From an uncultured bacterium (GTDB taxonomy: Bacteria; GCA-001730085): a stretch of 32,000 bases of DNA. The position numbers were made by a program, and so were the translations under genes. A model generated the notes under the pieces. The model was not told the origin of the DNA and did no database searches. It saw only the letters and a list, made by a program, of their open reading frames with translations. The stretch covers positions 14,856 to 46,855 of the forward strand of contig CAZMGY010000034.1 of NCBI GenBank assembly GCA_964565945.1, written 5' to 3'. This document shows positions 1 through 32,000 of the stretch, piece by piece. Position 1 is the first letter of the stretch, and every line of letters starts with the position of its first letter.

Positions 1-164
1 AGCAACAAGCGCAAGAGTTGGTTGACTTGATGTGGTGGATGATCCATGAAGGTCAAGAGTTAGCTGAGCCATTGCATTATGTTCCTTTGTCGGAAAGAGC
101 TCGTTCAAAAGCCATCGCTATTTTGCGTTCGATTACATATAACGGGACGCCATTGATGAATTAA
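1..164 (+). CDS. pstS: 3' end of phosphate-binding protein PstS (partial, enters from upstream of the window)
   Basis: Frame 3 is open from the window edge to TAA at 162-164 (..LMWWMIHEGQELAEPLHYVPLSERARSKAIAILRSITYNGTPLMN*). It lies directly upstream of pstC-pstA-pstB-phoU. It is absent from the ORF track because it has no start in the window. Confidence 0.6.
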   Translation, partial: QQAQELVDLMWWMIHEGQELAEPLHYVPLSERARSKAIAILRSITYNGTPLMN

Positions 165-218
165 GTTTAGTTAGTTGAAGTTGTGTGAAAGTAGATTAAC
201 AAGGGGCTTTAGGTAAAA

Positions 219-1097
219 ATGGGTATAGGTGGAGAGAGCCTTTTAAGACGATTTGTGTTTTTTTCGGGCGTATCCATTTTGATTGTTGTGAGTCTTTTTG
301 CGAGTACGCTGTTTTGGAAAGCTTTGCCCGCGATTCAAACTTTTGGCTTTCCCTTTTTGGGTGGCCAAGAGTGGGATCCCGTGATGGACTCCTTTGGTGC
401 TGCACCTTTCCTTGTGGGGACGCTCCTTACGTCTTTTTTAGCCCTTCTTATGGCAATTCCTCTTTCCTTGGCATTGGGTATTGTGCTTGGTGAGTATTTT
501 AGAGAGGGGATTATATCGCAATTCTTTCGTAGCTTGATTGAGTTGTTGGCGGGTATCCCTTCGGTGATTTATGGCTTTTGGGGCTTATTGGTTCTGGTAC
601 CATTGGTGCGAAGTATCGAAATCAAATTAGGCATTATGCCTTATGGTGTTGGTATTTTCACCTCGTCGATCATTTTGGCTGTGATGATCATTCCTTTTTC
701 AGCCTCCATGGCTCGCGAGATGATTAACTTAGTTCCGACGGAGTATAAAGAAGCTGCGATTGCTTTGGGTGCTACCCGTTTTGAAATGATTTGGAAGGTG
801 CTGCTTCCTTATGCACGTTCGGGTATCTTTGTGGGTTTTATGTTGGCTCTAGGTCGTGCCTTGGGCGAAACCATGGCTGTGACCATGCTGATTGGTAATA
901 ATAATAACTTTCCAAGCAGTATCTTTAGTCTGGGCAATACGATGTCGAGTTTGATTGCCAATGAGTTTGCCGAAGCTTCTGATGATTTGTATTTGTCGGC
1001 TTTGATTGAGATTGGTTTGATTTTATTTGTGGTAACCACTGTGATTAACATTGTTGGTAAGTACATTACGAAAAAGTTAAGTGTGAGGTCTGTCTGA
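219..1097 (+). CDS. pstC: phosphate ABC transporter permease PstC
   Basis: 292 aa polytopic membrane protein with an ABC permease EAA-type loop (EYKEAAIALGATRFEMIWKVLLP). First gene of a pstCAB-phoU order. Its stop overlaps the pstA ATG (TGATG at 1095-1099). Confidence 0.9.
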   Translation: MGIGGESLLRRFVFFSGVSILIVVSLFASTLFWKALPAIQTFGFPFLGGQEWDPVMDSFGAAPFLVGTLLTSFLALLMAIPLSLALGIVLGEYFREGIISQFFRSLIELLAGIPSVIYGFWGLLVLVPLVRSIEIKLGIMPYGVGIFTSSIILAVMIIPFSASMAREMINLVPTEYKEAAIALGATRFEMIWKVLLPYARSGIFVGFMLALGRALGETMAVTMLIGNNNNFPSSIFSLGNTMSSLIANEFAEASDDLYLSALIEIGLILFVVTTVINIVGKYITKKLSVRSV

Positions 1098-1945
1098 TGG
1101 ATCGTACTTTAGCTATTCGCAAAATCAAAAACCAGCTCTTTTTTGGTATTATTTTAGGTCTTTCCTTGTGTCTGCTGGTTCCATTGGTTTTGATTTTTTA
1201 TTATGTGACCGTGCGCGGTTTTAAGGCGATTAACTGGGGGTTTTTTATTAATCTGCCTACACCTGTTGGAGAGACGGGAGGAGGGATCTTTAATGCTATT
1301 TTAGGTTCGTTTTATATTGTTGCTATGGCATGTCTGATCGCTATTCCTTGGGGAATGAGTACTGGAATTTTTCTTTATGATGCTCAAGAAAATTCACGTT
1401 TGGCTTATTGGGTTCGCTTATGTGTTGATGTTTTGCAGGCGACACCTTCGATTGTGGTAGGAATTGTGGCGTATGTGTGGTTGGTGCTGCCGATGAAAAC
1501 TTTCTCGGCCATTGCGGGGAGTTTTACCCTAGCGATTTTGATGATGCCGATGATTGTGCGGGCGACGGAAGAAACCTTGCATTTGATTCCTAATACCTTA
1601 AAAGAAGCCTCTCTTGCTTTAGGTGTGCCTTATTATCGCACCTTATTTAAGGTGATGATTCCTTCGGGTCTCAGTGGTATTTTAAGTGGTATTTTGCTAG
1701 GGGTTGCACGAACCATGGGTGAGACAGCACCATTGTTGTTTACGGCTTTTGGCAGCCCTTATTTGGTGCATAATGTTCTTAAGCCTATGGGCTCTTTGCC
1801 TTTATTGATTTTTAATTACGCGATGAGTCCTTATGAAGATTGGCACACATTGGCGTGGGGTGCTTCGTTTATACTGATCCTGTTTGTTTTATTGATAAAT
1901 CTTTTGATAAAGGTAGTGACACGGCGATGGAACGTCAAGTTTTAA
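1097..1945 (+). CDS. pstA: phosphate ABC transporter permease PstA
   Basis: 282 aa membrane protein with a permease loop ([22 protein letters not shown]). Lies between pstC and pstB. Confidence 0.9.
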
Positions 1946-7417: not shown

Positions 7418-7484
7418 GGACTTTATCATATCATAAACTGTGGTAAAATATTTGCGTATGGGTCCAATCAAAAGGAGAAAAATA

Positions 7485-7727
7485 ATGCCTAATCTAGTGC
7501 TTTACGGTATGGAAAGTTGTATGTTTTGCCAAAAAGTTCGTCAATATCTTCAAGAAGAGGGGATTGAAGTGCCTGTGAAAGAGATTCAAGAAGATTCTGC
7601 GGCACGTGATGAATTGATGGCGATTGGGGGGAAGACCCAGGTGCCTTGTTTGGTGATTGATGGTGAACCTTTGTATGAGTCTTTGGATATCATTGAGTGG
7701 TTTAAAAATAATTGGAGTAGAGTATGA
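7485..7727 (+). CDS. small glutaredoxin/NrdH-like thioredoxin-fold protein (CMFC active site)
   Basis: 80 aa, MPNLVLYGMESCMFCQKV..GGKTQVPCLVIDGEPL. AGGAG lies 7-8 nt upstream of ATG 7485; the track start at 7440 has no SD. Its stop overlaps the bolA start (ATGA at 7724-7727). Confidence 0.75.
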   Translation: MPNLVLYGMESCMFCQKVRQYLQEEGIEVPVKEIQEDSAARDELMAIGGKTQVPCLVIDGEPLYESLDIIEWFKNNWSRV

Positions 7728-7957
7728 TTGACAAAATTAAGGCAATTATTCTGGATGCGATTCCTGATGCGGTAGTTGAGGTGAGTGATCCTCGTAATGA
7801 TGGGCACCACTTTGAAGCAAGGGTAATCAGTTCATTGTTTGAAGATATGTCCTTGGTGAAGCAGCACCAGATGGTTATGAAGGCTTTAAAAAATGCGTTT
7901 GATTCGGAAACGATGCATGCTTTGCAGCTCAAAACATTAACACCTAAGGATGTTTAG
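7724..7957 (+). CDS. bolA: BolA-family protein
   Basis: 77 aa. The DGHHFEARVISSLFEDMSLVKQHQMVMKAL pattern is typical of BolA. Adjacent to a monothiol glutaredoxin. Confidence 0.8.
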   Translation: MIDKIKAIILDAIPDAVVEVSDPRNDGHHFEARVISSLFEDMSLVKQHQMVMKALKNAFDSETMHALQLKTLTPKDV

Positions 7958-8032
7958 GATAGAGTTCCTTAGGTAGCTCTCCCTTTGAAAAATGGAGAGG
8001 AGATTAATTGAAATATAAGGAGTATTTGAAAA

Positions 8033-8347
8033 ATGAACAAATCAGTGAAACAACAAATTGAGAAAAATATTCAAGACCACCCCATTATGCTTTTCATGAA
8101 GGGAACACCGCCCTTTTCTACGTGCGGTTTTTCGAGTGCTGTGATTGATGTTTTGAATTCCTACGATGTTAAATTTGGCTCAGTCAATGTTCTCGATAAT
8201 AAAGATTTGCGCCAAGGAATCAAAGATTTCTCGGATTGGCCCACGATTCCTCAGCTTTACGTGAAAGGTGAGTTTATTGGCGGTTGCGATATTGTCTTGG
8301 AGATGCATCAGAAAGGAGAGCTGGAAGCTCTTTTGAAAAATGCCTAA
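8033..8347 (+). CDS. grxD: Grx4-type monothiol glutaredoxin
   Basis: 104 aa with the CGFS active site (PPFSTCGFSSAV) and WPTIPQLYVKGEFIGGCDI. AAGGAG lies 10 nt upstream. Confidence 0.9.
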   Translation: MNKSVKQQIEKNIQDHPIMLFMKGTPPFSTCGFSSAVIDVLNSYDVKFGSVNVLDNKDLRQGIKDFSDWPTIPQLYVKGEFIGGCDIVLEMHQKGELEALLKNA

Positions 8348-12339: not shown

Positions 12340-14064
<1,725 letters not shown>

Positions 14065-14347
14065 CTATGTCAATGTATGGTTAATAACGTTTTTATGAGG
14101 TTCTATTATACACTGGAAAGCTTACAATTGTTTGGAGAGAGAAGTTTTTCTTATTGATGGGCGGGTGTGAGACAATCTTACACCTTTAATCACCAAATAA
14201 AAAAATGAGTGTTATGGGAGGAATGCTGTTTGTGACTATGTGGGCAATCACAAAGTTTCCAGCCCATATGACACAGGCAAAAGGGCGAGTAGATAAGCTT
14301 TAGTGGCAGTTGTTTTCATTAGGGGCATTGCCCCGTAGCATATAGGC

Positions 14348-17300
14348 TTAAATACTAAAGTATTTGGTTTTGGGGTGATGAAAAACCAATGCTGAGACCG
14401 AAGCTTCTGGCTCCATCATGCAATCTTCTGTGAGTTCGACACCCAAGTACTTGTTGGGTTCGAGTAAGAGCCATAGAATGTTTTGGTCGTCTAAATTAGG
14501 ACAGGCGGGGTAACCAAAGGAGACACGAATACCTTGGTACTTGGCTTGTAAAATGTTAGGAATACTCAGTTCGGGGCTATCGGGGATACCCCAGACTTGG
14601 CGAATGTTTCTGTGCAAGACTTCGGCCAAGGACTCGGCTGTTTCCATGGCAAGTGCAAAGAACGTGTGCGATAAAACGTATTCTCCTGCGTCGAGATATT
14701 CTCTGGCAATAGCGCCGACATCACAGCCCGCTGTTGTTACAAAAGCGCAAATTGTATCTGTGCGGTCGGGATGGACAAAGTCTGATAAGCATAGATCTTC
14801 GCCACCTTGCTGGCGTGGAAAATCAAATCGTTCTCTTTCTTGTTCAGTGTTAGGATCAAGAACAAGGATGCTATTGCCTTCGGGTTTAACTTTAAAAAAT
14901 TGATAAAGACCTTTTGGCTTGAAAAGATTTTCGTCGAGAATTTTTTGTTTGATTTGATCGACAGTTGCTTTTAACTTAAGGGCTTTGTCATCTCCTTTTT
15001 CGAGCAGGCGCTTGATTGAACCTTTAAGACCTAGATTTTTGCCATAAAGCATGTTGTTATTCAGGTAAGGCCAGACTTCTTCGGGAGAGTAGGAGACCAC
15101 GTGTCTTTTAAAATCAGGAGTTTTTGGTAGTTTGTGGCTGTGATCAAGAATGAATTTTTCTTTTTTGGACACCACGGTGGTTTTGGTTTTGATTTTGGTT
15201 TTGATTTGTTCGCAGCGGTTCAAAAACTGTGGTTTCCAAGTGGTGAAAAGTTCTGAATCAACGATATGATTGGAAATATCGAGACCATTCATGGCATCAC
15301 GGCAGTAGATCACCAAACCTTCGTATTCGGGAGTAATTTTGGTGATTGTGAAATTTTCGGAGAGAGCGGCACCTCCAACCAAAATGGGTGCATTGATGCC
15401 TGCCTCTTTCATATCTTTGGCGCTGATGACCATTTGGTGGGCTGATTTAACCAAAAGACCGCTGAGACCGATGAGATCAGGATTATGTTTTTTGGCTGCC
15501 TCGATCAAAACCGCGGATGGACACTTAATGCCTAAATTTACAACTTTGTAGCCATTGTTGCCCAAAATAATCTCGACTAAGTTTTTGCCAATATCGTGGA
15601 CATCCCCTTTAACGGTGGCTAAAAGGAGAGTTCCCTTAACATTAGTTTCCACTGCATCCATAAATTGTTCCAAATAATTGACGGAAGCCTTCATGGCTTC
15701 GGCTGATTGCAATACTTCGGCCACGATTAACTCGTTGTCGTTGAACATTTTTCCAACAATGGCCATAGCGGCCATGAGAGGGCCGTTGATGATGGCAAGC
15801 GGATTAGGATATTTTTGGCATGCTTCTTCGAGGTTTTCGATGAGATATTCTTTGGTGCCTTGCACAATATTGATTTCGAGCTTGTCTTCGATCGAGAGCT
15901 TGGAGCGATCGACTTTGGGCTTTTCGGACACGGCTTTATCCCGATAATAGGCCACAAAATTACTGATAGGATCGTTGCCATCCGTTTGCTTGTACCATAG
16001 CAAGTCATCGCACAATTTTTTTTCTTCGTCGGATAGGGTGGCGTAGCGTAGCATTTTTTCAGAATTGACAATAGCGGTATCTAGACCAGCTTGGGTGCAG
16101 TGATAAACAAACACTGTGTTTAAAGCTTCTCGTCCTGCTGGAGGAAGACCAAAAGATACATTCGAAATACCAAGAGTGGTTTTGCATCGAGGAAAGCGTT
16201 TTTTGATCAGGCGAACGCCTTCAATGGTTTCTTTACCCGAGCCAAAGTAGTTTTTATCTCCAGTTCCACAAGGGAAGACGAGTGGATCAAAGATAATATT
16301 TTCTTCGTGCAAACCATATTTTTCTGTTAGTAATTTGTGTGATTCAATCGCCACATCGAGTTTGTTTTCGGCGGTGACGGCCATTTCGCCGCGAATGCAA
16401 CCGACGACGACCGATGCGCCATATTTTTTAATCACAGGAACCAATTCTTCGAAACTTTTTTCACCATCTTCTAAATTAATCGAATTAAGAATGCACTTGC
16501 CTTGGGTAAGCTTAAACGCTTCTTCGATCACTTCGGGAACTTGAGAGTCGATCATGAAAGGTATTTTGACCAGCTTGGTGGCAATGCTTAGAAAAGCGAT
16601 GATATCGGACGTTTCGTCGCGGTCAGGATTGGACAGACAAACATCAATAATGTGAGCACCCGCTTTGACTTGTTTTCGAGCAATTTCGGCTGCGTCTTCG
16701 AATTTTTCTTCGATAATCATATTTTTGAAGAGGCGTGATCCAATCACATTGGTTCGTTCGGCCACAATGTAGGGGCGCCCCTCATCTTCCAAAACCAAAG
16801 ATTCGATACCTGATATGCGACTGGCATGCTCTTTTTGAGGTTCTCTCGGTTGTTTGTTGTGAGAAATATTAGCAAGAGCTGCAATATGTTCTGGTGTTGT
16901 TCCACAGCATCCTCCAAGCAAATTGATCCAGCCTTCTGCAATAAATTGCTCAAGAACTTTAGCTAACATGTCGGGGTTTTCCAAATATTCGCCATTTTCG
17001 TTGGGGAGACCTGCATTTGGCACAACGGCGACGGGACAACAGGCAATTTCGGACAATGTCCGAATATGGTCTTTCATAAAAGCTGGTCCTGTGGCGCAGT
17101 TAAGTCCGATGTAAAGGGGTGTCATATGTTCAACCGAAGCATAGAGAGCTTCGACACCTTGCCCGGCAAGCATAGTGCCCATCGTTTCGATGGTGCCCGA
17201 GATGGCAATGGGGAGTTCTTGGCCACATTCGTCAAAGGCTTGTAAAATGCCGACATAAGCAGCTTTGAGATTAAGTGTGTCGAGAGCTGTCTCAAGTAAA

Positions 17301-17776
17301 AGATAATCTGATCCACCTTTAATAAGGGGAATGGCTTGCTGTTTAAAGTTTTCGACCAATGTGTCGAAGGTGATACCACCAGTAACGGATAATGATTTAG
17401 TGGTCGGTCCCATAGATCCAGCGACAAAGCGAGGTTGTTCGGATGTCGAAAAGCGGTCGCAGGCCTGACGCGCAAGTTGGGCGGCTTGAAAGTTAATCTC
17501 GTAGTAGTGGTCTTGCAACTGATATTCTTTGAGAACAAGTGGAGTAGCGCCAAAGGTATTGGTTTCAATAATGCTGGCTCGAGCCCTTAAATAGCTTTCA
17601 TGGACAGTTGTGATGGTTTCGGGTTTAGTGATAACCAAGTATTCATTGCAGCCGTCGTATTCGGCACCTCCGAAATCGTCTGGTGTTAAATTCATATCTT
17701 GTAGGGAAGTGCCCATGGCGCCGTCGATGACTAAAATTTTACTATTAAGTTGTTCATAAATTATATGTTTATCCAA
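14348..17776 (-). CDS. metH: cobalamin-dependent methionine synthase MetH
   Basis: Hcy-binding domain (ILVIDGAMGT.., GGCCGTTPEHI), a pterin-binding domain, the B12-binding DxHxxG motif (GDVHDIGKN) and a C-terminal AdoMet-activation domain. Start trimmed to in-frame TTG 17774-17776 (LDKHIIYEQLNSKILVIDG), which parallels the E. coli N-terminus. No ATG lies between there and the conserved core. The track ORF runs to 18208 through the yggS gene on the other strand. Confidence 0.85.
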   Translation of the reverse strand: MDKHIIYEQLNSKILVIDGAMGTSLQDMNLTPDDFGGAEYDGCNEYLVITKPETITTVHESYLRARASIIETNTFGATPLVLKEYQLQDHYYEINFQAAQLARQACDRFSTSEQPRFVAGSMGPTTKSLSVTGGITFDTLVENFKQQAIPLIKGGSDYLLLETALDTLNLKAAYVGILQAFDECGQELPIAISGTIETMGTMLAGQGVEALYASVEHMTPLYIGLNCATGPAFMKDHIRTLSEIACCPVAVVPNAGLPNENGEYLENPDMLAKVLEQFIAEGWINLLGGCCGTTPEHIAALANISHNKQPREPQKEHASRISGIESLVLEDEGRPYIVAERTNVIGSRLFKNMIIEEKFEDAAEIARKQVKAGAHIIDVCLSNPDRDETSDIIAFLSIATKLVKIPFMIDSQVPEVIEEAFKLTQGKCILNSINLEDGEKSFEELVPVIKKYGASVVVGCIRGEMAVTAENKLDVAIESHKLLTEKYGLHEENIIFDPLVFPCGTGDKNYFGSGKETIEGVRLIKKRFPRCKTTLGISNVSFGLPPAGREALNTVFVYHCTQAGLDTAIVNSEKMLRYATLSDEEKKLCDDLLWYKQTDGNDPISNFVAYYRDKAVSEKPKVDRSKLSIEDKLEINIVQGTKEYLIENLEEACQKYPNPLAIINGPLMAAMAIVGKMFNDNELIVAEVLQSAEAMKASVNYLEQFMDAVETNVKGTLLLATVKGDVHDIGKNLVEIILGNNGYKVVNLGIKCPSAVLIEAAKKHNPDLIGLSGLLVKSAHQMVISAKDMKEAGINAPILVGGAALSENFTITKITPEYEGLVIYCRDAMNGLDISNHIVDSELFTTWKPQFLNRCEQIKTKIKTKTTVVSKKEKFILDHSHKLPKTPDFKRHVVSYSPEEVWPYLNNNMLYGKNLGLKGSIKRLLEKGDDKALKLKATVDQIKQKILDENLFKPKGLYQFFKVKPEGNSILVLDPNTEQERERFDFPRQQGGEDLCLSDFVHPDRTDTICAFVTTAGCDVGAIAREYLDAGEYVLSHTFFALAMETAESLAEVLHRNIRQVWGIPDSPELSIPNILQAKYQGIRVSFGYPACPNLDDQNILWLLLEPNKYLGVELTEDCMMEPEASVSALVFHHPKTKYFSI

Positions 17777-17878
17777 ATATTTGTCATTCTCACTAGATTG
17801 GGGTTTATAAAGCTCGTGATCATGTCGTAAGGTGATGCTTAGTGTGAAAAAGACATTATAACATGATAAAATGGTGGG

Positions 17879-18532
17879 ATGAAAGTATCTTGCGAACAAT
17901 TTCAGCAAAATAGACACAGGATTCAAGCTCATATCTCTGATTTTAATGGAGATATGGTGGTGGTGACCAAGTATTTTAGTGCCGAAGAGATGGATTTTCT
18001 TGCAGAGACAGATGTTGTTGATGTGGGAGAAAATCGGGTTCAGGCGCTTAAGGATAAACATGCTTATTGGGGTGATCGCTTTCGCTGGCATATGATAGGT
18101 CCATTGCAGACCAATAAAGTTAAACTGGTCGTTCAAATTTGTTCGATGATTCATTCGGTGGATCGTCTTAAACTTGCTTATGCTATTGATGCCGAAGCGA
18201 AAAAACAAGGCGCGCGTATGCCTAGTTGTTTGCAGGTAAATGTGCGTGGAGAGGAACGTAAACAGGGCTTTCGTCCTGAGGAGCTAAAATCTGTGTATAA
18301 TGAATTAAAGACATGCGAAGGTCTGGATATTCAGGGGCTTATGACAATGGCACCCTTGGTTGACGATCTGGAAGAGACGCGATCCTGCTTTAGGCATTTG
18401 CGTCGATTGGCAGATGACTTGAAGTTAAAACATTGTTCGATGGGGATGAGTCAAGATTTTCACGTAGCTGTTGAGGAAAGGGCGACGATCATTCGCTTGG
18501 GACGAGTGCTTTATAAGGAGTCTTTAGGATAA
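17879..18532 (+). CDS. yggS: YggS-family pyridoxal-phosphate homeostasis protein
   Basis: 217 aa. VVVTKYFSAEEM (PLP lysine context), DVGENRVQ, WHMIGPLQTNKV and the C-terminal SMGMS..D motifs of the YggS/PROSC family. Confidence 0.85.
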   Translation: MKVSCEQFQQNRHRIQAHISDFNGDMVVVTKYFSAEEMDFLAETDVVDVGENRVQALKDKHAYWGDRFRWHMIGPLQTNKVKLVVQICSMIHSVDRLKLAYAIDAEAKKQGARMPSCLQVNVRGEERKQGFRPEELKSVYNELKTCEGLDIQGLMTMAPLVDDLEETRSCFRHLRRLADDLKLKHCSMGMSQDFHVAVEERATIIRLGRVLYKESLG

Positions 18533-27095: not shown

Positions 27096-27845
27096 ATGAG
27101 ACGTAGAATTATTGCTGGAAACTGGAAGCTTAATAAAACCAATGCTGAAGCTGTTGAGCTTGTGAAGGAATTAGCGGCTCAGGTGAGTGATGTAAGCGGT
27201 GTGGATATGGTGGTTTGTCCAACAGCGATTGCTCTTTCAGATGTGGCTCAAAAACTTGAAGGGTCTGTGATTGGTGTGGGGGCTCAGAATATGTGGTGTG
27301 AAGACAGTGGAGCTTTCACGGGTGAAATTGCGGCGCCCATGATTCAAGCGATTGGAGCTCAGTATGTGATTTTAGGTCACTCTGAACGTCGTCAGTATTT
27401 CGGAGAAGACAATGCGGTGATCAATAAAAAAGTTCATAAAGCGATTAGCACTGGTTTGACACCGATTGTCTGTGTTGGCGAAACTTTGGCAGAGCGCGAA
27501 GGTGGCATTATGGAAACTGTGGTTAAAGATCATATTTTGGGATCTTTGGAAGGTGTTTCAGCTGCCGATATGACGAAAGTTGTTTTGGCCTATGAACCCG
27601 TATGGGCGATTGGGACAGGGAAAACCGCTACTCCTGAGGAAGCGCAAGAGGTTCATGCCTTCATTCGTAGTTTGTTGGTCGAGGCTTATGGCCAAGACGT
27701 GGCGGATCAGGTGCGTATTCAGTATGGCGGAAGTGTGAAACCTGGCAATGCAGCCGAACTTTTAGGCCAAGTCGACATTGATGGAGCCTTGGTTGGTGGC
27801 GCTAGCCTTAAGGCCGAAGATTTTGTGGCAATCATTAAGGCTTAA
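27096..27845 (+). CDS. tpiA: triosephosphate isomerase
   Basis: 249 aa. IAGNWKLN, ILGHSERR, AYEPVWAIGTG and LVGGASL motifs. GAGGAG lies upstream. Confidence 0.95.
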   Translation: MRRRIIAGNWKLNKTNAEAVELVKELAAQVSDVSGVDMVVCPTAIALSDVAQKLEGSVIGVGAQNMWCEDSGAFTGEIAAPMIQAIGAQYVILGHSERRQYFGEDNAVINKKVHKAISTGLTPIVCVGETLAEREGGIMETVVKDHILGSLEGVSAADMTKVVLAYEPVWAIGTGKTATPEEAQEVHAFIRSLLVEAYGQDVADQVRIQYGGSVKPGNAAELLGQVDIDGALVGGASLKAEDFVAIIKA

Positions 27846-27881
27846 AAATGATATATTACATTTATGATTAGAGCCTTAGCC

Positions 27882-28440
27882 TGACCTTCTGCCTCAATTT
27901 GGCTATATTTGATTCATGTAGTCATTTGGGCTAATATAGTCCAAATGAGAATGCAAATGTAGGCCGTTATAAAACATCACTATGTAATTCAAAATATCCT
28001 GTTGAGCTCCACTATTAGTCTGATAATGCTTCCACTGTACTCGTACCCGTTTTTTCTTTAGCGCTTGCGAAAGAAGTTCTCCGTGGACAGCGTTGTCCTG
28101 GTAATTGCCCTTACGGCTACATGCTACCAACAAAACCATGGGCGGCACAAGCGTAATCTGTTGTAAGTCTTGCTGCTATACTGAGAGCCACGGTCTGAAT
28201 GTACAATTAAGCCTGATGTTGGAGGACGCTCTTCTACGTCCATCCGAAATGCCTTTGTGAGAAGCCGAGTTGTCATACGCGAATCCCTGCTCCAGCCAAC
28301 GACTCGACGAAAAAAAAGGTCTATCAATATGGTCCAAATACAGCCAACCTTCCTGTGTCCAAATATAGGTTATATTAGAAACATAGGCATGATTTTGTCT
28401 GGGGACTTCAAATTGACGTTTTAGGACATTTTCAAAGGTA
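27882..28440 (-). mobile_element. 5'-truncated, decayed IS3-family insertion sequence remnant (right end only)
   Basis: Three consecutive transposase fragments lie in three different frames. A TGACC...-type terminus at 27882 sits just beyond the transposase stop. No OrfA, left end or second inverted repeat is present. The upstream boundary is approximate. Confidence 0.7.
27903..28430 (-). pseudogene. IS3-family OrfB (DDE/rve integrase-like transposase) pseudogene
   Basis: Fragment 28335-28430, hand-translated: NVLKRQFEVPRQNHAYVSNITYIWTQEGWLYL (family pattern ..W.TDITYI.T.EGW.YL, with the catalytic D replaced by N). Fragment 28124-28327: IDLFFRRVVGWS...HSDRGSQYSS. Fragment 27903-28148: SRKGNYQDNAV...FYNGLHLHSHLDYISPNDY. 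At least two frameshifts, and the N-terminal part is missing. Confidence 0.8.
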
Positions 28441-28654
28441 GAAAAACTTATGGTTACTTTAAACCCTACACTATACGGTATAGTAATATTAAATTTCTTA
28501 TGTGCAATAGTATTTCTATATGTTGTTTTATTTAATTAAAGTAGTTATAAATAATATATTTTGATTATTGTTACATTATGATAACATATATTTCTTGTAA
28601 AGAAAGAAGCAGGAAACTTAAGAAGACAACCCTTAAGATAGGAACCATTAAGGA

Positions 28655-28705
28655 TGAAATATTTAATTACTATTATTCAAACAAATCTCTTGGTTATTAT
28701 TATGA
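28655..28705 (+). other. 16-codon upstream ORF (MKYLITIIQQISWLLL*) ending in an ATGA overlap with the first ATG of the giant ORF
   Basis: ATG 28655 to TGA 28703-28705; the giant-ORF ATG is at 28702-28704. It could be a leader peptide, or the displaced true N-terminus (signal-peptide-like) separated by a 1-nt indel. Confidence 0.4.
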
Positions 28706-31700
28706 TGATGAATCTTTGGGGCTTAAGTGTACCTAGCCAACTTACTATGTTGCCAGGAGTGGCTAATACGGCGCAGATCTTATCGGCAAAGATGAATTTG
28801 ATTTCTGTTGAGGGGATATTAGGAGATCTTACCCAAATATTTCAAGACCATTGGCACTGGTTGATTGCAATCAAACATGAAGATTTTATTCCAGAAGAAG
28901 CCCATTTCGAAAAGAGGGACAAGGCACAAGTTCTTTTTAAAGCTCTTAAAACCAAAGCCTTAGACGAAGAGAATGTTGCCTTGTATACGGAAGTGGTTCA
29001 ATTTGAAAAATTTTGGAGCGAATTTGTTTTTGTTTTTTTGCCCAACTATATGTGGAATGTTTATATTGGTAAGGGTTTTTCTAAGAAATTTCCAGCTTTT
29101 TGGGAAAAATACTTTGAAAAGCATTGGCCTGAACAAAAGTATGACGAAAGCTTTTACAAAGAGTGGACAGAATGTCTGAGCAATCAAGTTGGTTTTGTTT
29201 GGAGTACAGAGCAGTGGAACCATACGAATGAGCATCAAAATTGGCAAGTGCTTTTTGCGCGTTATGAGGAGGCGCATGATCAACAGGTTTTGGGGCAACG
29301 TTTTGAATTATATGTTCAGCATTGGAAAGTTTGGCTAAGTGATAAAAATTCAGTTTTGGAAAATCTTGATGAGGACGCTATGGTGAAATATAGAAAAGCT
29401 TTGAATGCGCACCAAGCTTTGAAAAAATCATTAGTTTTGCCTCTTGCACCAGTATCTCAGCCTGTGGATGTGGCTGTGATTTCTAGAGGGGGTGGTGCTT
29501 TTGGGACTGTTTCCGAAAGTGCCGACGCGGACTTAAGGAAGAAATTAGATGATTTCTTGAAGGCAAAAAACACACAGCAAGAGGGGCAAAAAGAAGGAGT
29601 CGCTTTTCAATTATTGAGGGGTCTTTTGAAAGAGTGGAGCCAGGTGACAGCTTTTTTTCAAAATCATGTGACCGATTGGGTTAATGAACCTGTGGGGATT
29701 CACAACGATGTTGAATGGCGCGCCAAAGTGGCGCAAAAACTACTGCTGATTTTGGCGGATGAGCAAAATTTTACTAATGTGGAAAATCGTTCCGATAAGT
29801 CACAAGCTTTGATAAAAGCTATGTTAGGTTGGAGCGAAAATGCTCAAGGAGACGACGCTTTATGGCGAAGAGCTTCTGAAAGATTTCAGAATATTTTAGC
29901 TCATGTTCCCTTAAATAGTCACGATGTTCAAAGGAAATGGCCGGCCGTATGGGGTGAGCTTTGGAGTGGGTTACAGGGCTATGATGAACAAATAAATCGC
30001 TTGGTCCAAAGTTTTAAATCTTTTTTGAAAGACTACATTTTTCATATGTCTCAGGCCGAAGGTCTAGATTACGATATGGAGCAAATAATTGAAGAGTCTT
30101 TGCTGGAGCAAATGCGTCAAGGTTCCGAAGCTATTAAAAAAATAGCTCAGCAGATGAAAGGAGAATTGAATGAAAACTTGAATAATCGTGGTCAAGAGTG
30201 GTTGCAATTTCAGGGCTTTCTTGACCGATTGTTGCAACAGTTGATTGTGTTGGCAACTCTATTGGGGGGAGAGTTATCCCCGGAAATTTTACCTTTCTGG
30301 ACAAAAACCTTGGTAAACATTGAGCCCAGCAAGCAAGTGCCTATTTATGATCAAGCTGTTTTTGAGCAGTGGACGACGGAATGGAAGGAGTTGTGGAGTA
30401 TTATTGTGAGCGAAAAATGGGTTTCAAATAGGTATTTTCTTATTGATGTTATCTCCGCGTTACGGAAAGTCACACAAAAGTATATGGTTTTTGAAGGTCG
30501 TGAGGTGTTTCGGGGTGCTGATGAGCACATGGCTCGTTTAATGAAAGACTTTAATGGCTCTCTTCAAACATGGGTTTCTCAAAGAGCTAAGAATAATGTT
30601 TCTGATTCTACGCTGGTCACTTTAGCTGAGCAAGTTGAGACTATGCGTGGGATAGCTCAGCAAATGCGAAATCAGGGCAAGTCTGTTATTGCCAATAAAG
30701 GCGAAGAATGGATGAGGCACTATGGTTTTTTGCAGCGCTTGATGCAAAATATAGGAGAGATGGGAGATCTCTTAAGTGCGATTAATATCTGCAAGGGGCC
30801 TCCTAATAGAGAATCTCTCCTTATGGCGGGAAAATTTATTTATCTGATCAATAAGGTTTCCCCAGCGGATAGTTTAACAATTGTTGTGAAGGATCAAGAT
30901 GTTTACATTGCTTGGACAGAGTTATGGAGTCAGGTTTGGGATATCTTGTTAAGTAGCGATCTATGGAACGGAGAAGCGCCAGAATTTTTTATATCAATGA
31001 GAGATACTCTTAATAGCAAGCTGGTATTTGAGGAGGTGCAATCAATGGAGTTATTGTCTCAAATGGCTACTGAAACGGGAGGACGACACTCTTCTCCTGA
31101 AGGATCCCTTTCTCCTGAAGATCGAGGTTTCGTATTGATGCCAGCTCTCCCTCAAACAAAAATCTATTCAGAAGGGACAGTTGTTTGGGAGGAGACCCTG
31201 AAGAACTGGGATATAACTGACTTCGTTGGTCATGTTCGGGTTAATCATAAGCAAAGTTCGTTGGTTCAAAGTATTCCAGCTAATACTTATAAACAAACTA
31301 TAGATACGATTCTAGTGCATCCTAGTGCCTTTCAATTGCCAGGAGCTTTGATGCATTTTTTGATGCGCAATGAGATGCATCATCTTATGATCGCTGGCGA
31401 TACGGAGCTCCAAGAGTTTTATGCTCAAGAACCGCCGTTTATTTTAGGAACGGATAACTTGCTTTATACCATTGCCACGACACCGCGAGAAGTGTGGGCA
31501 GAGGTTTTGAAAGCGATGAAAGATTACGCTGATAAACTTGAGCAAGCAGGGGTGGAAAATGTGAATAGGTACCGTATTTTGCTAACCGCTTTGGACGCTA
31601 TGACATCGCCTAAACTTTATGAATCTTTGTTGAAAACCGAAGGAAAAGAGATTAACTATTGGATCCTACAGCAGAGTGATTTATTAGATAAATTCGATGA

Positions 31701-32000
31701 TTGGTTTAAGGTTTCATATGGAACACTGAGAGGGGGTATGCGTGACAAAAATGCATTTAGAGAGGCGCATCCTGCTCAAGTGGAGGTTGCTTCCGAAAGA
31801 GACGATGATGCCTTAAGGAAGAGATTAAATGATTTCTTGACGGCAGGGGCAGGAGTTACACCACAACAGGGGCAAAGGGAAGGAGGCGTTTTTCAATTAT
31901 TGAGGAGCCTTTTGAAAGACTGGGATCAGGTGACAGCTTTGTTTCAAAATCATGTGACCGATTGGACTAATGAAGATGTGAGAACTCACAAGGATGTTGA
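28702..32000 (+). CDS. 5' part (at least 1,099 codons) of a giant Trp-rich, internally repetitive protein of unknown function; continues beyond the window
   Basis: Hand translation of every line from 28681 to 32000 in the frame aligned to the line starts gives no stop codon. The last in-frame stop is TAA at 28582-28584. The first in-frame ATG is 28702; TTG 28690 is the only earlier canonical start. The repeat copies differ by in-frame indels and many conservative changes, which is consistent with coding selection. It is missing from the ORF track, presumably because no stop lies in the window. Confidence 0.85.
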   Translation, partial: MMMNLWGLSVPSQLTMLPGVANTAQILSAKMNLISVEGILGDLTQIFQDHWHWLIAIKHEDFIPEEAHFEKRDKAQVLFKALKTKALDEENVALYTEVVQFEKFWSEFVFVFLPNYMWNVYIGKGFSKKFPAFWEKYFEKHWPEQKYDESFYKEWTECLSNQVGFVWSTEQWNHTNEHQNWQVLFARYEEAHDQQVLGQRFELYVQHWKVWLSDKNSVLENLDEDAMVKYRKALNAHQALKKSLVLPLAPVSQPVDVAVISRGGGAFGTVSESADADLRKKLDDFLKAKNTQQEGQKEGVAFQLLRGLLKEWSQVTAFFQNHVTDWVNEPVGIHNDVEWRAKVAQKLLLILADEQNFTNVENRSDKSQALIKAMLGWSENAQGDDALWRRASERFQNILAHVPLNSHDVQRKWPAVWGELWSGLQGYDEQINRLVQSFKSFLKDYIFHMSQAEGLDYDMEQIIEESLLEQMRQGSEAIKKIAQQMKGELNENLNNRGQEWLQFQGFLDRLLQQLIVLATLLGGELSPEILPFWTKTLVNIEPSKQVPIYDQAVFEQWTTEWKELWSIIVSEKWVSNRYFLIDVISALRKVTQKYMVFEGREVFRGADEHMARLMKDFNGSLQTWVSQRAKNNVSDSTLVTLAEQVETMRGIAQQMRNQGKSVIANKGEEWMRHYGFLQRLMQNIGEMGDLLSAINICKGPPNRESLLMAGKFIYLINKVSPADSLTIVVKDQDVYIAWTELWSQVWDILLSSDLWNGEAPEFFISMRDTLNSKLVFEEVQSMELLSQMATETGGRHSSPEGSLSPEDRGFVLMPALPQTKIYSEGTVVWEETLKNWDITDFVGHVRVNHKQSSLVQSIPANTYKQTIDTILVHPSAFQLPGALMHFLMRNEMHHLMIAGDTELQEFYAQEPPFILGTDNLLYTIATTPREVWAEVLKAMKDYADKLEQAGVENVNRYRILLTALDAMTSPKLYESLLKTEGKEINYWILQQSDLLDKFDDWFKVSYGTLRGGMRDKNAFREAHPAQVEVASERDDDALRKRLNDFLTAGAGVTPQQGQREGGVFQLLRSLLKDWDQVTALFQNHVTDWTNEDVRTHKDV
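29515..29716 (+). repeat. Start of long-period module, copy 1 (inside the giant ORF)
   Basis: ..DLRKKLDDFLKAKNTQQEGQKEGVAFQLLRGLLKEWSQVTAFFQNHVTDWVNEPVGIHNDVE. It contains a 24-nt stretch (29656-29679, tttcaaaatcatgtgaccgattgg) identical to 31942-31965. Confidence 0.85.
29950..30930 (+). repeat. Nested degenerate sub-repeats of about 144-177 codons inside module 1
   Basis: W-x-E-L-W-S occurs three times (WGELWS 29950-29967, WKELWS 30382-30399, WTELWS 30913-30930). IAQQM...EW(L/M)..GFL.RL(L/M)Q occurs twice, exactly 510 nt apart (30142 and 30652). Confidence 0.7.
31792..32000 (+). repeat. Start of long-period module, copy 2 (truncated by the window edge)
   Basis: ..ALRKRLNDFLTAGAGVTPQQGQREGGVFQLLRSLLKDWDQVTALFQNHVTDWTNEDVRTHKDV. 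Offset from copy 1 is 2,280 nt before and 2,286 nt after an in-frame 6-nt indel. About two-thirds of the aligned residues are identical (hand alignment). Confidence 0.85.

Follow-up and report, generated by a model that had tools for sequence, protein, structure and literature searches.

A large tryptophan-rich orphan gene built from nested repeats beyond tpiA in an uncultured bacterium

Results

A long open reading frame beyond tpiA

We analyzed a 32,000-nt stretch of DNA (the window) from an uncultured bacterium, corresponding to positions 14,856 to 46,855 of contig CAZMGY010000034.1 in GenBank assembly GCA_964565945.1. Toward the 3' end of the window, the gene order polA-gap-pgk-tpiA is followed by the remnant of an IS3-like insertion sequence (IS) and then by a large open reading frame (ORF) on the plus strand that leaves the window at its 3' end (Table 1). 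The 5' side of this ORF is bounded by an in-frame TAG at 28639-28641, and from 28642 to 32000 the frame contains 1,119 codons and no stop. An initial annotation of this DNA had reported an open frame of more than 1,100 codons at 28585-32000; the length holds, as does the openness of 28642-32000, while the part beginning at 28585 is interrupted by the TAG. Since ATG, GTG, and TTG are all absent from 28642-28653, translation can begin no earlier than the ATG at 28654, leaving 1,115 codons inside the window. The same annotation had pointed out that the frame was missing from the program-made list of ORFs. This is true and has a trivial cause, because the ORF tool leaves unlisted any ORF that runs off its source.

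Given the local base composition, the probability of 1,119 stop-free codons arising by chance is approximately 2e-30. We scored codon usage in all six frames using log-odds trained on 19 neighboring genes. The frame of the large ORF scored +0.22 and the remaining five frames scored -0.31 to -0.74, with the neighboring genes themselves scoring 0.21-0.48. Synonymous codon choice in the large ORF was correlated with that in the neighbors (r = 0.85). The G+C content of the ORF (40.7%) is slightly lower than that of the rest of the window (42.7%), as is its G+C content at third codon positions (0.38 versus 0.43), rather than equal to that of the core genes as first described. The product contains 40 Trp among 1,115 residues (3.59%), compared to 1.15% in the 19 neighbors (7,904 aa; binomial P = 7e-10), which agrees with the early hand count of about 40 Trp, or roughly three times a typical content. 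The large ORF is a real protein-coding gene of this uncultured bacterium, with native codon usage.

The IS remnant and the very AT-rich spacer that had been described upstream of the ORF were both confirmed. The Pfam profiles rve (E 5e-11) and rve_2 (E 5e-6) matched two minus-strand ORFs at 27903-28327 that are out of frame with each other. Among the ORFs upstream of the rve core, we found no candidate for OrfA. As far as its sequence can be read, the element is a remnant rather than an active element. Among the short-read contigs with identical tpiA that were recovered from Logan (L083-L088 and L092-L095), all but one end approximately 160 nt beyond tpiA, at window position ~28005 and thus inside the IS remnant; one ends earlier, approximately 21 nt past tpiA. 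Because contigs break inside the remnant, the IS element is probably present in multiple copies that fragment assemblies of this genome, and related copies are probably scattered through it. The spacer had no Rfam match, and upstream of the large gene we found no convincing sigma-70-like site on the plus strand and no terminator.

Repeats within repeats

A Kyte-Doolittle scan of the protein returned a single strongly hydrophobic 19-aa window, located in the N-terminal segment (1.83 at aa 4); the next best value outside that segment was 1.48 at aa 530. The segment has Lys at position 2 and few charges after the hydrophobic stretch, and its 30 residues (net +1) are the exception in a protein that is otherwise acidic throughout. 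The region that follows, up to aa 284, carries degenerate traces of the sub-repeat end motif described below, in the form of weak matches to a profile hidden Markov model (HMM) at aa 163-190 and 208-254. DSSP assigned this region as helical in the predicted model, at low confidence.

From aa 285 onward, the protein repeats at two scales, as the initial annotation had claimed. The longer period is approximately 760 aa: nt 29508-29714 and nt 31788-32000 are 80% identical at an offset of 760-762 aa, which defines module A and the start of a second copy, module B. Within module A, a sub-repeat of approximately 175 aa, represented by an HMM built from four copies, is clear in R1 and R2 (aa 440-615 compared with 616-799) and degenerate in R0. 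The ends of these three sub-repeats share the form D-x-x-V-(F/Y)-x-x-W-x3-W-x-E-L-W, in which Trp residues are spaced four apart to make a ladder. Searching for this spacing with a regular expression, we found three or more WxxxWxxxW motifs in just 3 of 20,000 shuffles of the protein. In a helix, the ladder Trp would line one face. Downstream of R2, a Ser/Pro/Gly linker lies exactly where it had been noted, followed by the tail domain. We considered the NEMHH motif in the tail domain as a metal site and rejected it, because HH is replaced by WQ in the other module copy. The early description of a Trp-rich, helical protein with repeats at two scales was correct.

Table 1. Coordinates of the IS remnant, the spacer, and the large ORF with its parts (window positions; aa counted from the ATG at 28654)
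Feature	Position (nt)	Residues (aa)	Strand	Basis or remark
IS3-like transposase remnant, OrfB integrase core only, frameshifted and truncated	27903..28430		-	Pfam rve, rve_2
AT-rich spacer, presumably the 5' region of the large gene	28431..28653		.	G+C 24.2% versus 42.3% for the window
Large orphan ORF, first ATG 28654	28654..32000, off the 3' end of the window		+	No in-frame stop; frame-specific codon score
N-terminal hydrophobic segment MKYLITIIQTNLLVIIMMMNLWGLSVPSQ, candidate signal anchor or signal peptide	28654..28743	1-30	+	Kyte-Doolittle
N-terminal region, most Trp-rich part apart from R0 (4.7% Trp)	28744..29505	31-284	+	Composition and weak HMM matches
Module A, large repeat unit of ~750 aa	29506..31761	285-1036	+	Start recurs at aa ~1045
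Degenerate sub-repeat R0		285-442	+	Closed by WPAVWGELW
Trp ladder WPAVWGELW closing R0	29938..29964		+	W at i, i+4, i+8
Sub-repeat R1	29980..30489	443-612	+	HMM E 4e-79
Trp ladder WTTEWKELW closing R1	30370..30396		+	WTTEWEELW in the L089 copy
Sub-repeat R2	30490..31053	613-800	+	HMM E 2e-87; diagonal scores at offsets of 170-181 aa
Trp ladder WTELWSQVW closing R2	30913..30939		+	WTELWDQVL in the L089 copy
Ser/Pro/Gly linker GGRHSSPEGSLSPEDRG	31078..31128		+	GGRENSG in the other module copy via in-frame deletion
Module tail domain, ~200 aa, best-conserved part of the module	31129..31725	826-1024	+	Identity to P0001/L081
Start of module B, cut by the window end	31762..32000	1037-1115	+	nt 31788-32000 80% identical to 29508-29714

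Searches for related proteins

Neither the whole protein nor any of its domains reached the curated cut-off of a family in Pfam-A, NCBIfam, PADLOC, or PHROGs. The best scores below the cut-offs were those of Translin (13.6 bits, cut-off 25.9), CPL (13-16.6 bits, cut-off 22.3), and YicC (13.2 bits, cut-off 167.5). When Pfam was scanned domain by domain at E <= 1, no family was common to the paralogous copies, and the pieces of the second module copy (contig L089, described below) had no Pfam family. There was no match in the PDB, either by sequence or with two profiles, and none to the large protein in GTDB genomes, JGI metagenomes, IMG/VR, or, by tblastn, plasmids and phages.

A word-indexed search of 5.8 billion clustered proteins with the whole fragment gave no match. 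An alignment-based search of the 5.8 billion clusters found one protein alone, P0001, and the same protein was the sole match in a full HMMER search over 1.84 billion representatives (~15 billion proteins). P0001 is 171 aa long and 63% identical to aa 854-1022 (E 2e-61). Judged by these searches, the gene belongs to no described family. Its initial designation as an orphan stands across the family, structure, genome, plasmid, and phage collections, with the exception of what is probably the gene's own 3' end, and no search by sequence or structure produced a confident match to a characterized family.

The interval between tpiA and ligA

P0001 is the product of a cut gene at the start of Logan contigs on which ligA lies 28 nt downstream. 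A longer version of this cut ORF, on contig L089 (SRR12008133), encodes 583 aa that align colinearly with the window protein over aa 444-1022 and are 50% identical to it, and this version stops exactly at the position of the boundary between modules A and B in the window. On L089, L090, L091, and L081, the cut ORF ends the same 28 nt before ligA. Conservation is highest in the tail domain, which is 62-63% identical between the window and P0001/L081, compared to approximately 50% (BLASTP) to 53% (global alignment) for the aligned part of the module.

Several observations connect these contigs with the organism in the window. The adjoining LigA (P0002) is present in both NCBI and Logan, on contigs of up to 88,380 bp, as are TpiA, PolA, FabD, PGK, and ThiC of the window, on contigs of up to 46,855 bp. 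No other LigA with >62% identity was found in the 5.8-billion-protein collection, though the window organism is present there in at least 29 blocks. Both the window genes and the ligA-side contigs come from the same SRR series; literature searches with the run accessions gave no relevant publication. In addition, the first 30 nt of L089 are identical to window positions 29981-30010. If the assembler used k = 31, as we assume for Logan, this identity is a k-1 junction, and both module copies would therefore share one sample. We rejected the possibility that P0001 is an orthologue from another species on the grounds of the adjoining ligA and this 30-nt junction.

Synteny with a family-level relative joins the two halves of the locus. 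In the relative (contigs L096, L097, and L098), which is 66% identical to the window organism in TpiA, 81% in GAPDH, 76% in PGK, and 61% in LigA, the order is polA-gap-pgk-tpiA, a NeuB-like gene (344 aa), a gene of 606 aa with no Pfam match, VanZ, and then ligA-dsbH-panC-panD-aspDH-TPR. L089 and L081 carry the cut ORF followed by ligA, an AI-2E transporter gene, and the same dsbH-panC-panD-aspDH-TPR series. The large gene therefore occupies a variable tpiA-ligA interval, as a comparison of 5136-10000 on L096/L097 of the relative with 27096-32000 of the window shows. That the cut ORF upstream of ligA represents the 3' end of the large gene, and that this gene would fill the tpiA-ligA interval, is well supported by gene order and junction sequence. 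The large gene itself is absent at tpiA-ligA in the relative. We tested the relative's 606-aa gene as a homologue and rejected it (best BLASTP E 0.059 over 62 aa).

The initial annotation had considered the ORF not obviously a recent foreign insert. Native-like codon usage agrees with this view, and synteny qualifies it, given that the gene appears as lineage-specific cargo in a variable interval beside an IS remnant. As for the organism, the best match of its TpiA (65%) is from an Omnitrophota metagenome-assembled genome (MAG), followed by Planctomycetales and Hydrogenedentota at 58%. Named LigA matches all have approximately 50% identity and come from Omnitrophota, Ratteibacteria, Chlamydiota, and other groups. 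There is no close genome in GTDB.

Attempts to recover the remainder of the gene succeeded at its probable 3' end, on short-read contigs, and not in the middle: look-ups with TpiA, LigA, and PstC stop at the IS or inside the last module, and a look-up with a 67-aa ORF of the IS remnant found no contig. An assembly artefact, in which mis-joined repeats in a metagenome bin created the frame, is suggested by the source, which is evidently a MAG contig, and by the fact that these look-ups gave no independent assembly of 28654-32000. We consider such a chimera highly improbable. The sequence upstream of ~28005 is reproduced in many independent assemblies with identical protein products, the 3' module is present in five contigs from five samples, and the 30-mer shared exactly by the start of L089 and the window is expected if module A exists in that sample. 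Furthermore, a chimera would not yield a 1,119-codon open frame with native codon usage.

Length of the gene

The window ends at module position ~355, and L089 starts at module position 444. If module B is the last module, approximately 88 codons are missing and the gene would comprise two modules encoding approximately 1,780 aa, which is the simplest reconstruction. The divergence from module A fits this model, being approximately 80% nucleotide identity on both sides of the ~88-codon gap. With 1,115 aa in the window and approximately 1,780 aa in the simplest model, the data do not bear out the term giant that was first applied to the protein. The start of two independent Logan contigs, one of 35,485 bp and one of 42,389 bp, falls at a single point, about window position -14,384. 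This common start suggests another repeat or IS copy there. If the source contig also starts at this break, then we infer that the 46,855-bp contig ends within approximately 0.5 kb of the window end, and the rest of the large gene is probably off the source contig.

We weighed the alternative that the gene is truly giant, with thousands of codons and additional near-identical ~750-aa modules that short-read assemblers have collapsed. This alternative concerns size and is compatible with either a cytoplasmic or an exported location. Both flanking assemblies break inside the gene, and on the ligA side the Logan contigs extend no more than 1,782 nt into the upstream sequence and end at different positions. 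The probable end of the source contig just beyond the window would also be in keeping with a giant gene. The break falls at one and the same base in L081 and L082, which come from two samples, and the first bases of these contigs do not occur in the window, a pattern compatible with a repeat that also occurs in an unseen module. The host offers a further hint, since the nearest TpiA comes from an Omnitrophota MAG, and giant genes are reported to be abundant in that phylum (10.1101/2023.11.21.568195; 10.64898/2026.06.07.730766). On the other side, the two-module model already explains the breaks with a gap of only ~88 codons, L089 begins exactly at a 30-mer common to module A, and the identity to module A is the same on both sides of the gap. 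We therefore regard a giant gene as rather unlikely, though deserving of some weight.

The very long proteins of Omnitrophota are the closest published parallel. West-Roberts et al. and Nielsen & Lui describe proteins of 10,000 to >100,000 aa that have numerous transmembrane regions, most of the full-length giants also containing SecA DEAD-like domains (10.1101/2023.11.21.568195; 10.64898/2026.06.07.730766). As in those accounts, the gene described here is a large, lineage-restricted, and largely unannotatable repeat ORF from an uncultured host, it appears as fragments in short-read assemblies, and it has an N-terminal membrane or signal element, in this case a candidate. Unlike the reported giants, it has one hydrophobic segment and no SecA or DEAD match in the 1,115 aa of the window protein or in the L089 pieces, and its observed and simplest modeled lengths are far shorter. 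The recovered part is thus without the hallmarks that these accounts report.

Divergence among module copies

We compared module A with the L089 copy over 567 codons and found proportions of synonymous (pS) and nonsynonymous (pN) differences of 0.25 and 0.265, giving a ratio of nonsynonymous to synonymous divergence (dN/dS) of 1.08. In blocks of 100 codons, dN/dS ranged from 0.72 to 1.24 and was lowest in the tail domain (0.72, aa 844-943). The starts of modules A and B gave 0.81. As a control, four housekeeping pairs analyzed with the same script gave pS of 0.55-0.73 and pN of 0.12-0.27; therefore, the dN/dS of approximately 1 is not an artefact of the method.

At approximately 26% nucleotide divergence, the module copies contain no stops: none occurs in 28642-32000 and none in the L089 copy. 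Under neutral simulation, the 581 codons would be expected to contain 21.5 +/- 4.6 stops, and at least one stop arose in every one of 2,000 runs. The two copies are colinear, with in-frame gaps only, which argues against frameshifts. Certain residues are kept between the copies more often than the overall 53%, namely, Tyr (76%), Pro (76%), Trp (71%), and Leu (68%). The gene grew via nested tandem duplication, and selection acts on its frame and on aromatic or structural residues, with most positions changing freely.

Variation among samples was also detectable. Across five contigs from five samples, the 2,007 nt of ligA are identical, and the 3' end of the large gene has four distinct single-nucleotide polymorphisms, all of them nonsynonymous; three of the four are close to the start of one contig and could be assembly variants. 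Overall, the 3' ends are near-identical (0-4 nt differences) in several samples of two SRR series.

These data bear on the explanation that the gene is young or decaying and barely functional, having been created and enlarged by tandem duplication, brought in with or beside an IS, and left to drift under almost no constraint, in which case its Trp richness and repeats would be historical accidents. The dN/dS of 0.8-1.1 between copies would be expected under drift, the databases searched hold no homologue, the gene adjoins a dead IS in a variable interval, its ribosome-binding site is weak, and its codon score is at the low end of its neighbors' range. Drift does not account for the absence of stops where ~21 are expected under neutrality, the colinearity of the copies with in-frame gaps only, or the preferential retention of Trp, Tyr, Pro, and Leu and the dN/dS of 0.72 in the tail domain. 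Nor does it account for 3' ends that differ by only 0-4 nt across several samples of two SRR series. For these reasons, we think it quite improbable that the gene is simply drifting.

Neighboring genes and other features of the window

The AI-2E transporter downstream of ligA is 343 aa long in some samples and 342 aa in others (L081 2578-3609 versus L089 3795-4823). With ligA the same in every nucleotide, this difference in length shows that strains vary to some extent around the locus. Downstream of panC-panD-aspDH, both lineages encode a TPR protein of approximately 610-640 aa (L081 7927-10445; L097 16325-21657). In the relative, small unannotated genes come next, together with genes for a prepilin-type N-methyl protein and an LTD/ComEA-like protein. 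These genes lie approximately 8-10 kb from the large gene and may serve a pilus, secretion, or competence.

Elsewhere in the window, the metH ORF (14348-18208, minus strand; 1,286 aa with a TTG start) extends approximately 150 residues past the MetH profile at its N-terminus and runs into the beginning of a YggS-like gene (17879-18532, plus strand). The real metH start is probably near 17750. Despite the presence of metH, Rfam detected no cobalamin riboswitch in the window. Upstream of thiC (14053-14347, minus strand), there was no thiamine pyrophosphate (TPP) riboswitch at Rfam gathering scores or at E <= 1. The ~870 nt between the divergent topA and xth-like genes (7472-8339) lack any ORF of >=150 aa, and Rfam gave no match to them at gathering scores.

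Discussion

We tentatively propose that the large gene encodes an exported or anchored helical-repeat protein of the envelope or surface that is under diversifying selection; we consider this possible, though with low confidence. The N-terminal segment would act as a Sec signal or as an N-in anchor, so that the protein crosses, or is anchored in, the inner membrane. The helical array would then lie outside the cytoplasm as an extended, rapidly diversifying envelope or surface protein, where it would interact with other cells, with a host or prey, or with phages. Its Trp stripes would make up either the packed cores of the repeats or a binding face. The hints of export are the single N-terminal hydrophobic segment with its Lys at position 2 and the content of the relative's interval (the NeuB-like gene, the 606-aa gene, and VanZ). 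The initial annotation had likened the protein to secreted, surface, or effector proteins, and what this analogy has gained is indirect: the hydrophobic segment, the dN/dS of approximately 1 between modules, and the presence of surface-polysaccharide-type genes at the same place in the relative.

Several points weigh against this proposal. Export is suggested by sequence features, and our confidence in it is low; the hydrophobic stretch is long, is broken by Q, T, and N residues, and shows no evident cleavage site. At the proposed start, AAGG directly abuts the ATG at 28654, a poor Shine-Dalgarno spacing compared to those of gap, pgk, tpiA, and fabD. Structure prediction added little: the AlphaFold model of all 1,115 aa had a mean predicted local distance difference test (pLDDT) score of 35.8, with DSSP assigning almost all of it to helix, and the model of the tail domain, built with one paralogue, scored 41.1 and was mostly helical, which is low confidence in both cases. 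Foldseek searches of these models (pLDDT 36 and 41) against the PDB gave no match below E 2.6. A dN/dS of approximately 1 fits relaxed constraint as well as it fits diversifying selection. Finally, it is possible that the locus contains more modules, or two tandem paralogues rather than one gene.

The same N-terminal segment could instead tether the protein on the cytoplasmic side of the membrane. In EzrA/spectrin-like proteins, an N-terminal membrane helix precedes an array of helical-bundle repeats of approximately 100-180 aa with conserved aromatics. These proteins form broadly conserved families, and spectrin repeats also carry positionally conserved Trp. By analogy, the large protein may be a membrane-tethered helical scaffold of this type, or a coiled-coil cytoskeletal protein, that organizes division, shape, or a membrane domain. 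Its anatomy is compatible with such a role, having one N-terminal hydrophobic helix, then approximately 1,000 or more residues of predicted helix bundles with no other hydrophobic segment, and repeats with positionally conserved Trp. The gene end 28 nt before ligA would also permit cotranscription. However, Pfam gave no match with EzrA, with spectrin, or with any scaffold family, not even when separate domains were scanned at E <= 1. Conservation is the norm for core cytoskeletal proteins, whereas the large gene is confined to one lineage, being absent at the same locus in the family-level relative and from every database, and a dN/dS of approximately 1 is atypical for such proteins. Lys2 weakly favors an N-in/C-out topology. 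A scaffold of this kind is therefore an unlikely explanation.

Returning to an exported surface protein, we compared the gene product with two other groups. The tryptophan-rich antigens of Plasmodium are helical proteins with positionally conserved Trp that are lineage specific, fast evolving, and surface exposed or exported, and they are eukaryotic, much smaller, and nonmodular. The likeness to them is one of composition only, with no Pfam match at E <= 1. Like the RTX, Bap, and Ig-like adhesins, the large protein is large, acidic, and modular through tandem duplication, and those adhesins are often found in variable loci and are often fast diverging. They differ in being rich in beta structure, with Ig-like or GGxGxD repeats of approximately 80-110 aa, whereas the repeats described here are helical in the predicted models and approximately 175 and 750 aa long. 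Pfam found no RTX or Ig-like domain in the large protein. In kind, the protein is similar to large repeat proteins that are specific to one lineage.

Few parts of bacterial genomes are as poorly understood as large, lineage-specific repeat proteins, which are systematically lost by short-read assembly and from gene catalogues. The gene described here is absent from approximately 15 billion catalogued proteins though its organism is present in dozens of public sequencing runs. It offers a clean case, with tpiA and ligA as bounds, a clear hierarchy of repeats, conserved Trp ladders, and an open frame under selection in which amino acids change as fast as silent sites. It is a well-bounded orphan encoding a Trp-ladder helical repeat protein, probably one of approximately 1.8 thousand residues rather than a giant. 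An exported protein would be a candidate for an interaction protein or a diversifying surface protein in an uncultured lineage; if the protein is not exported, the gene is a well-defined young gene growing through duplication. More speculatively, and in our view rather doubtfully, the gene could be the founding member of an unseen family, in which an exported Trp-ladder helical array with a new fold would serve as a diversifying contact or decoy surface, recently built through nested tandem duplication in a host related to the PVC and Omnitrophota groups. If that were true, the gene would be a natural example of how very long bacterial proteins begin growing.

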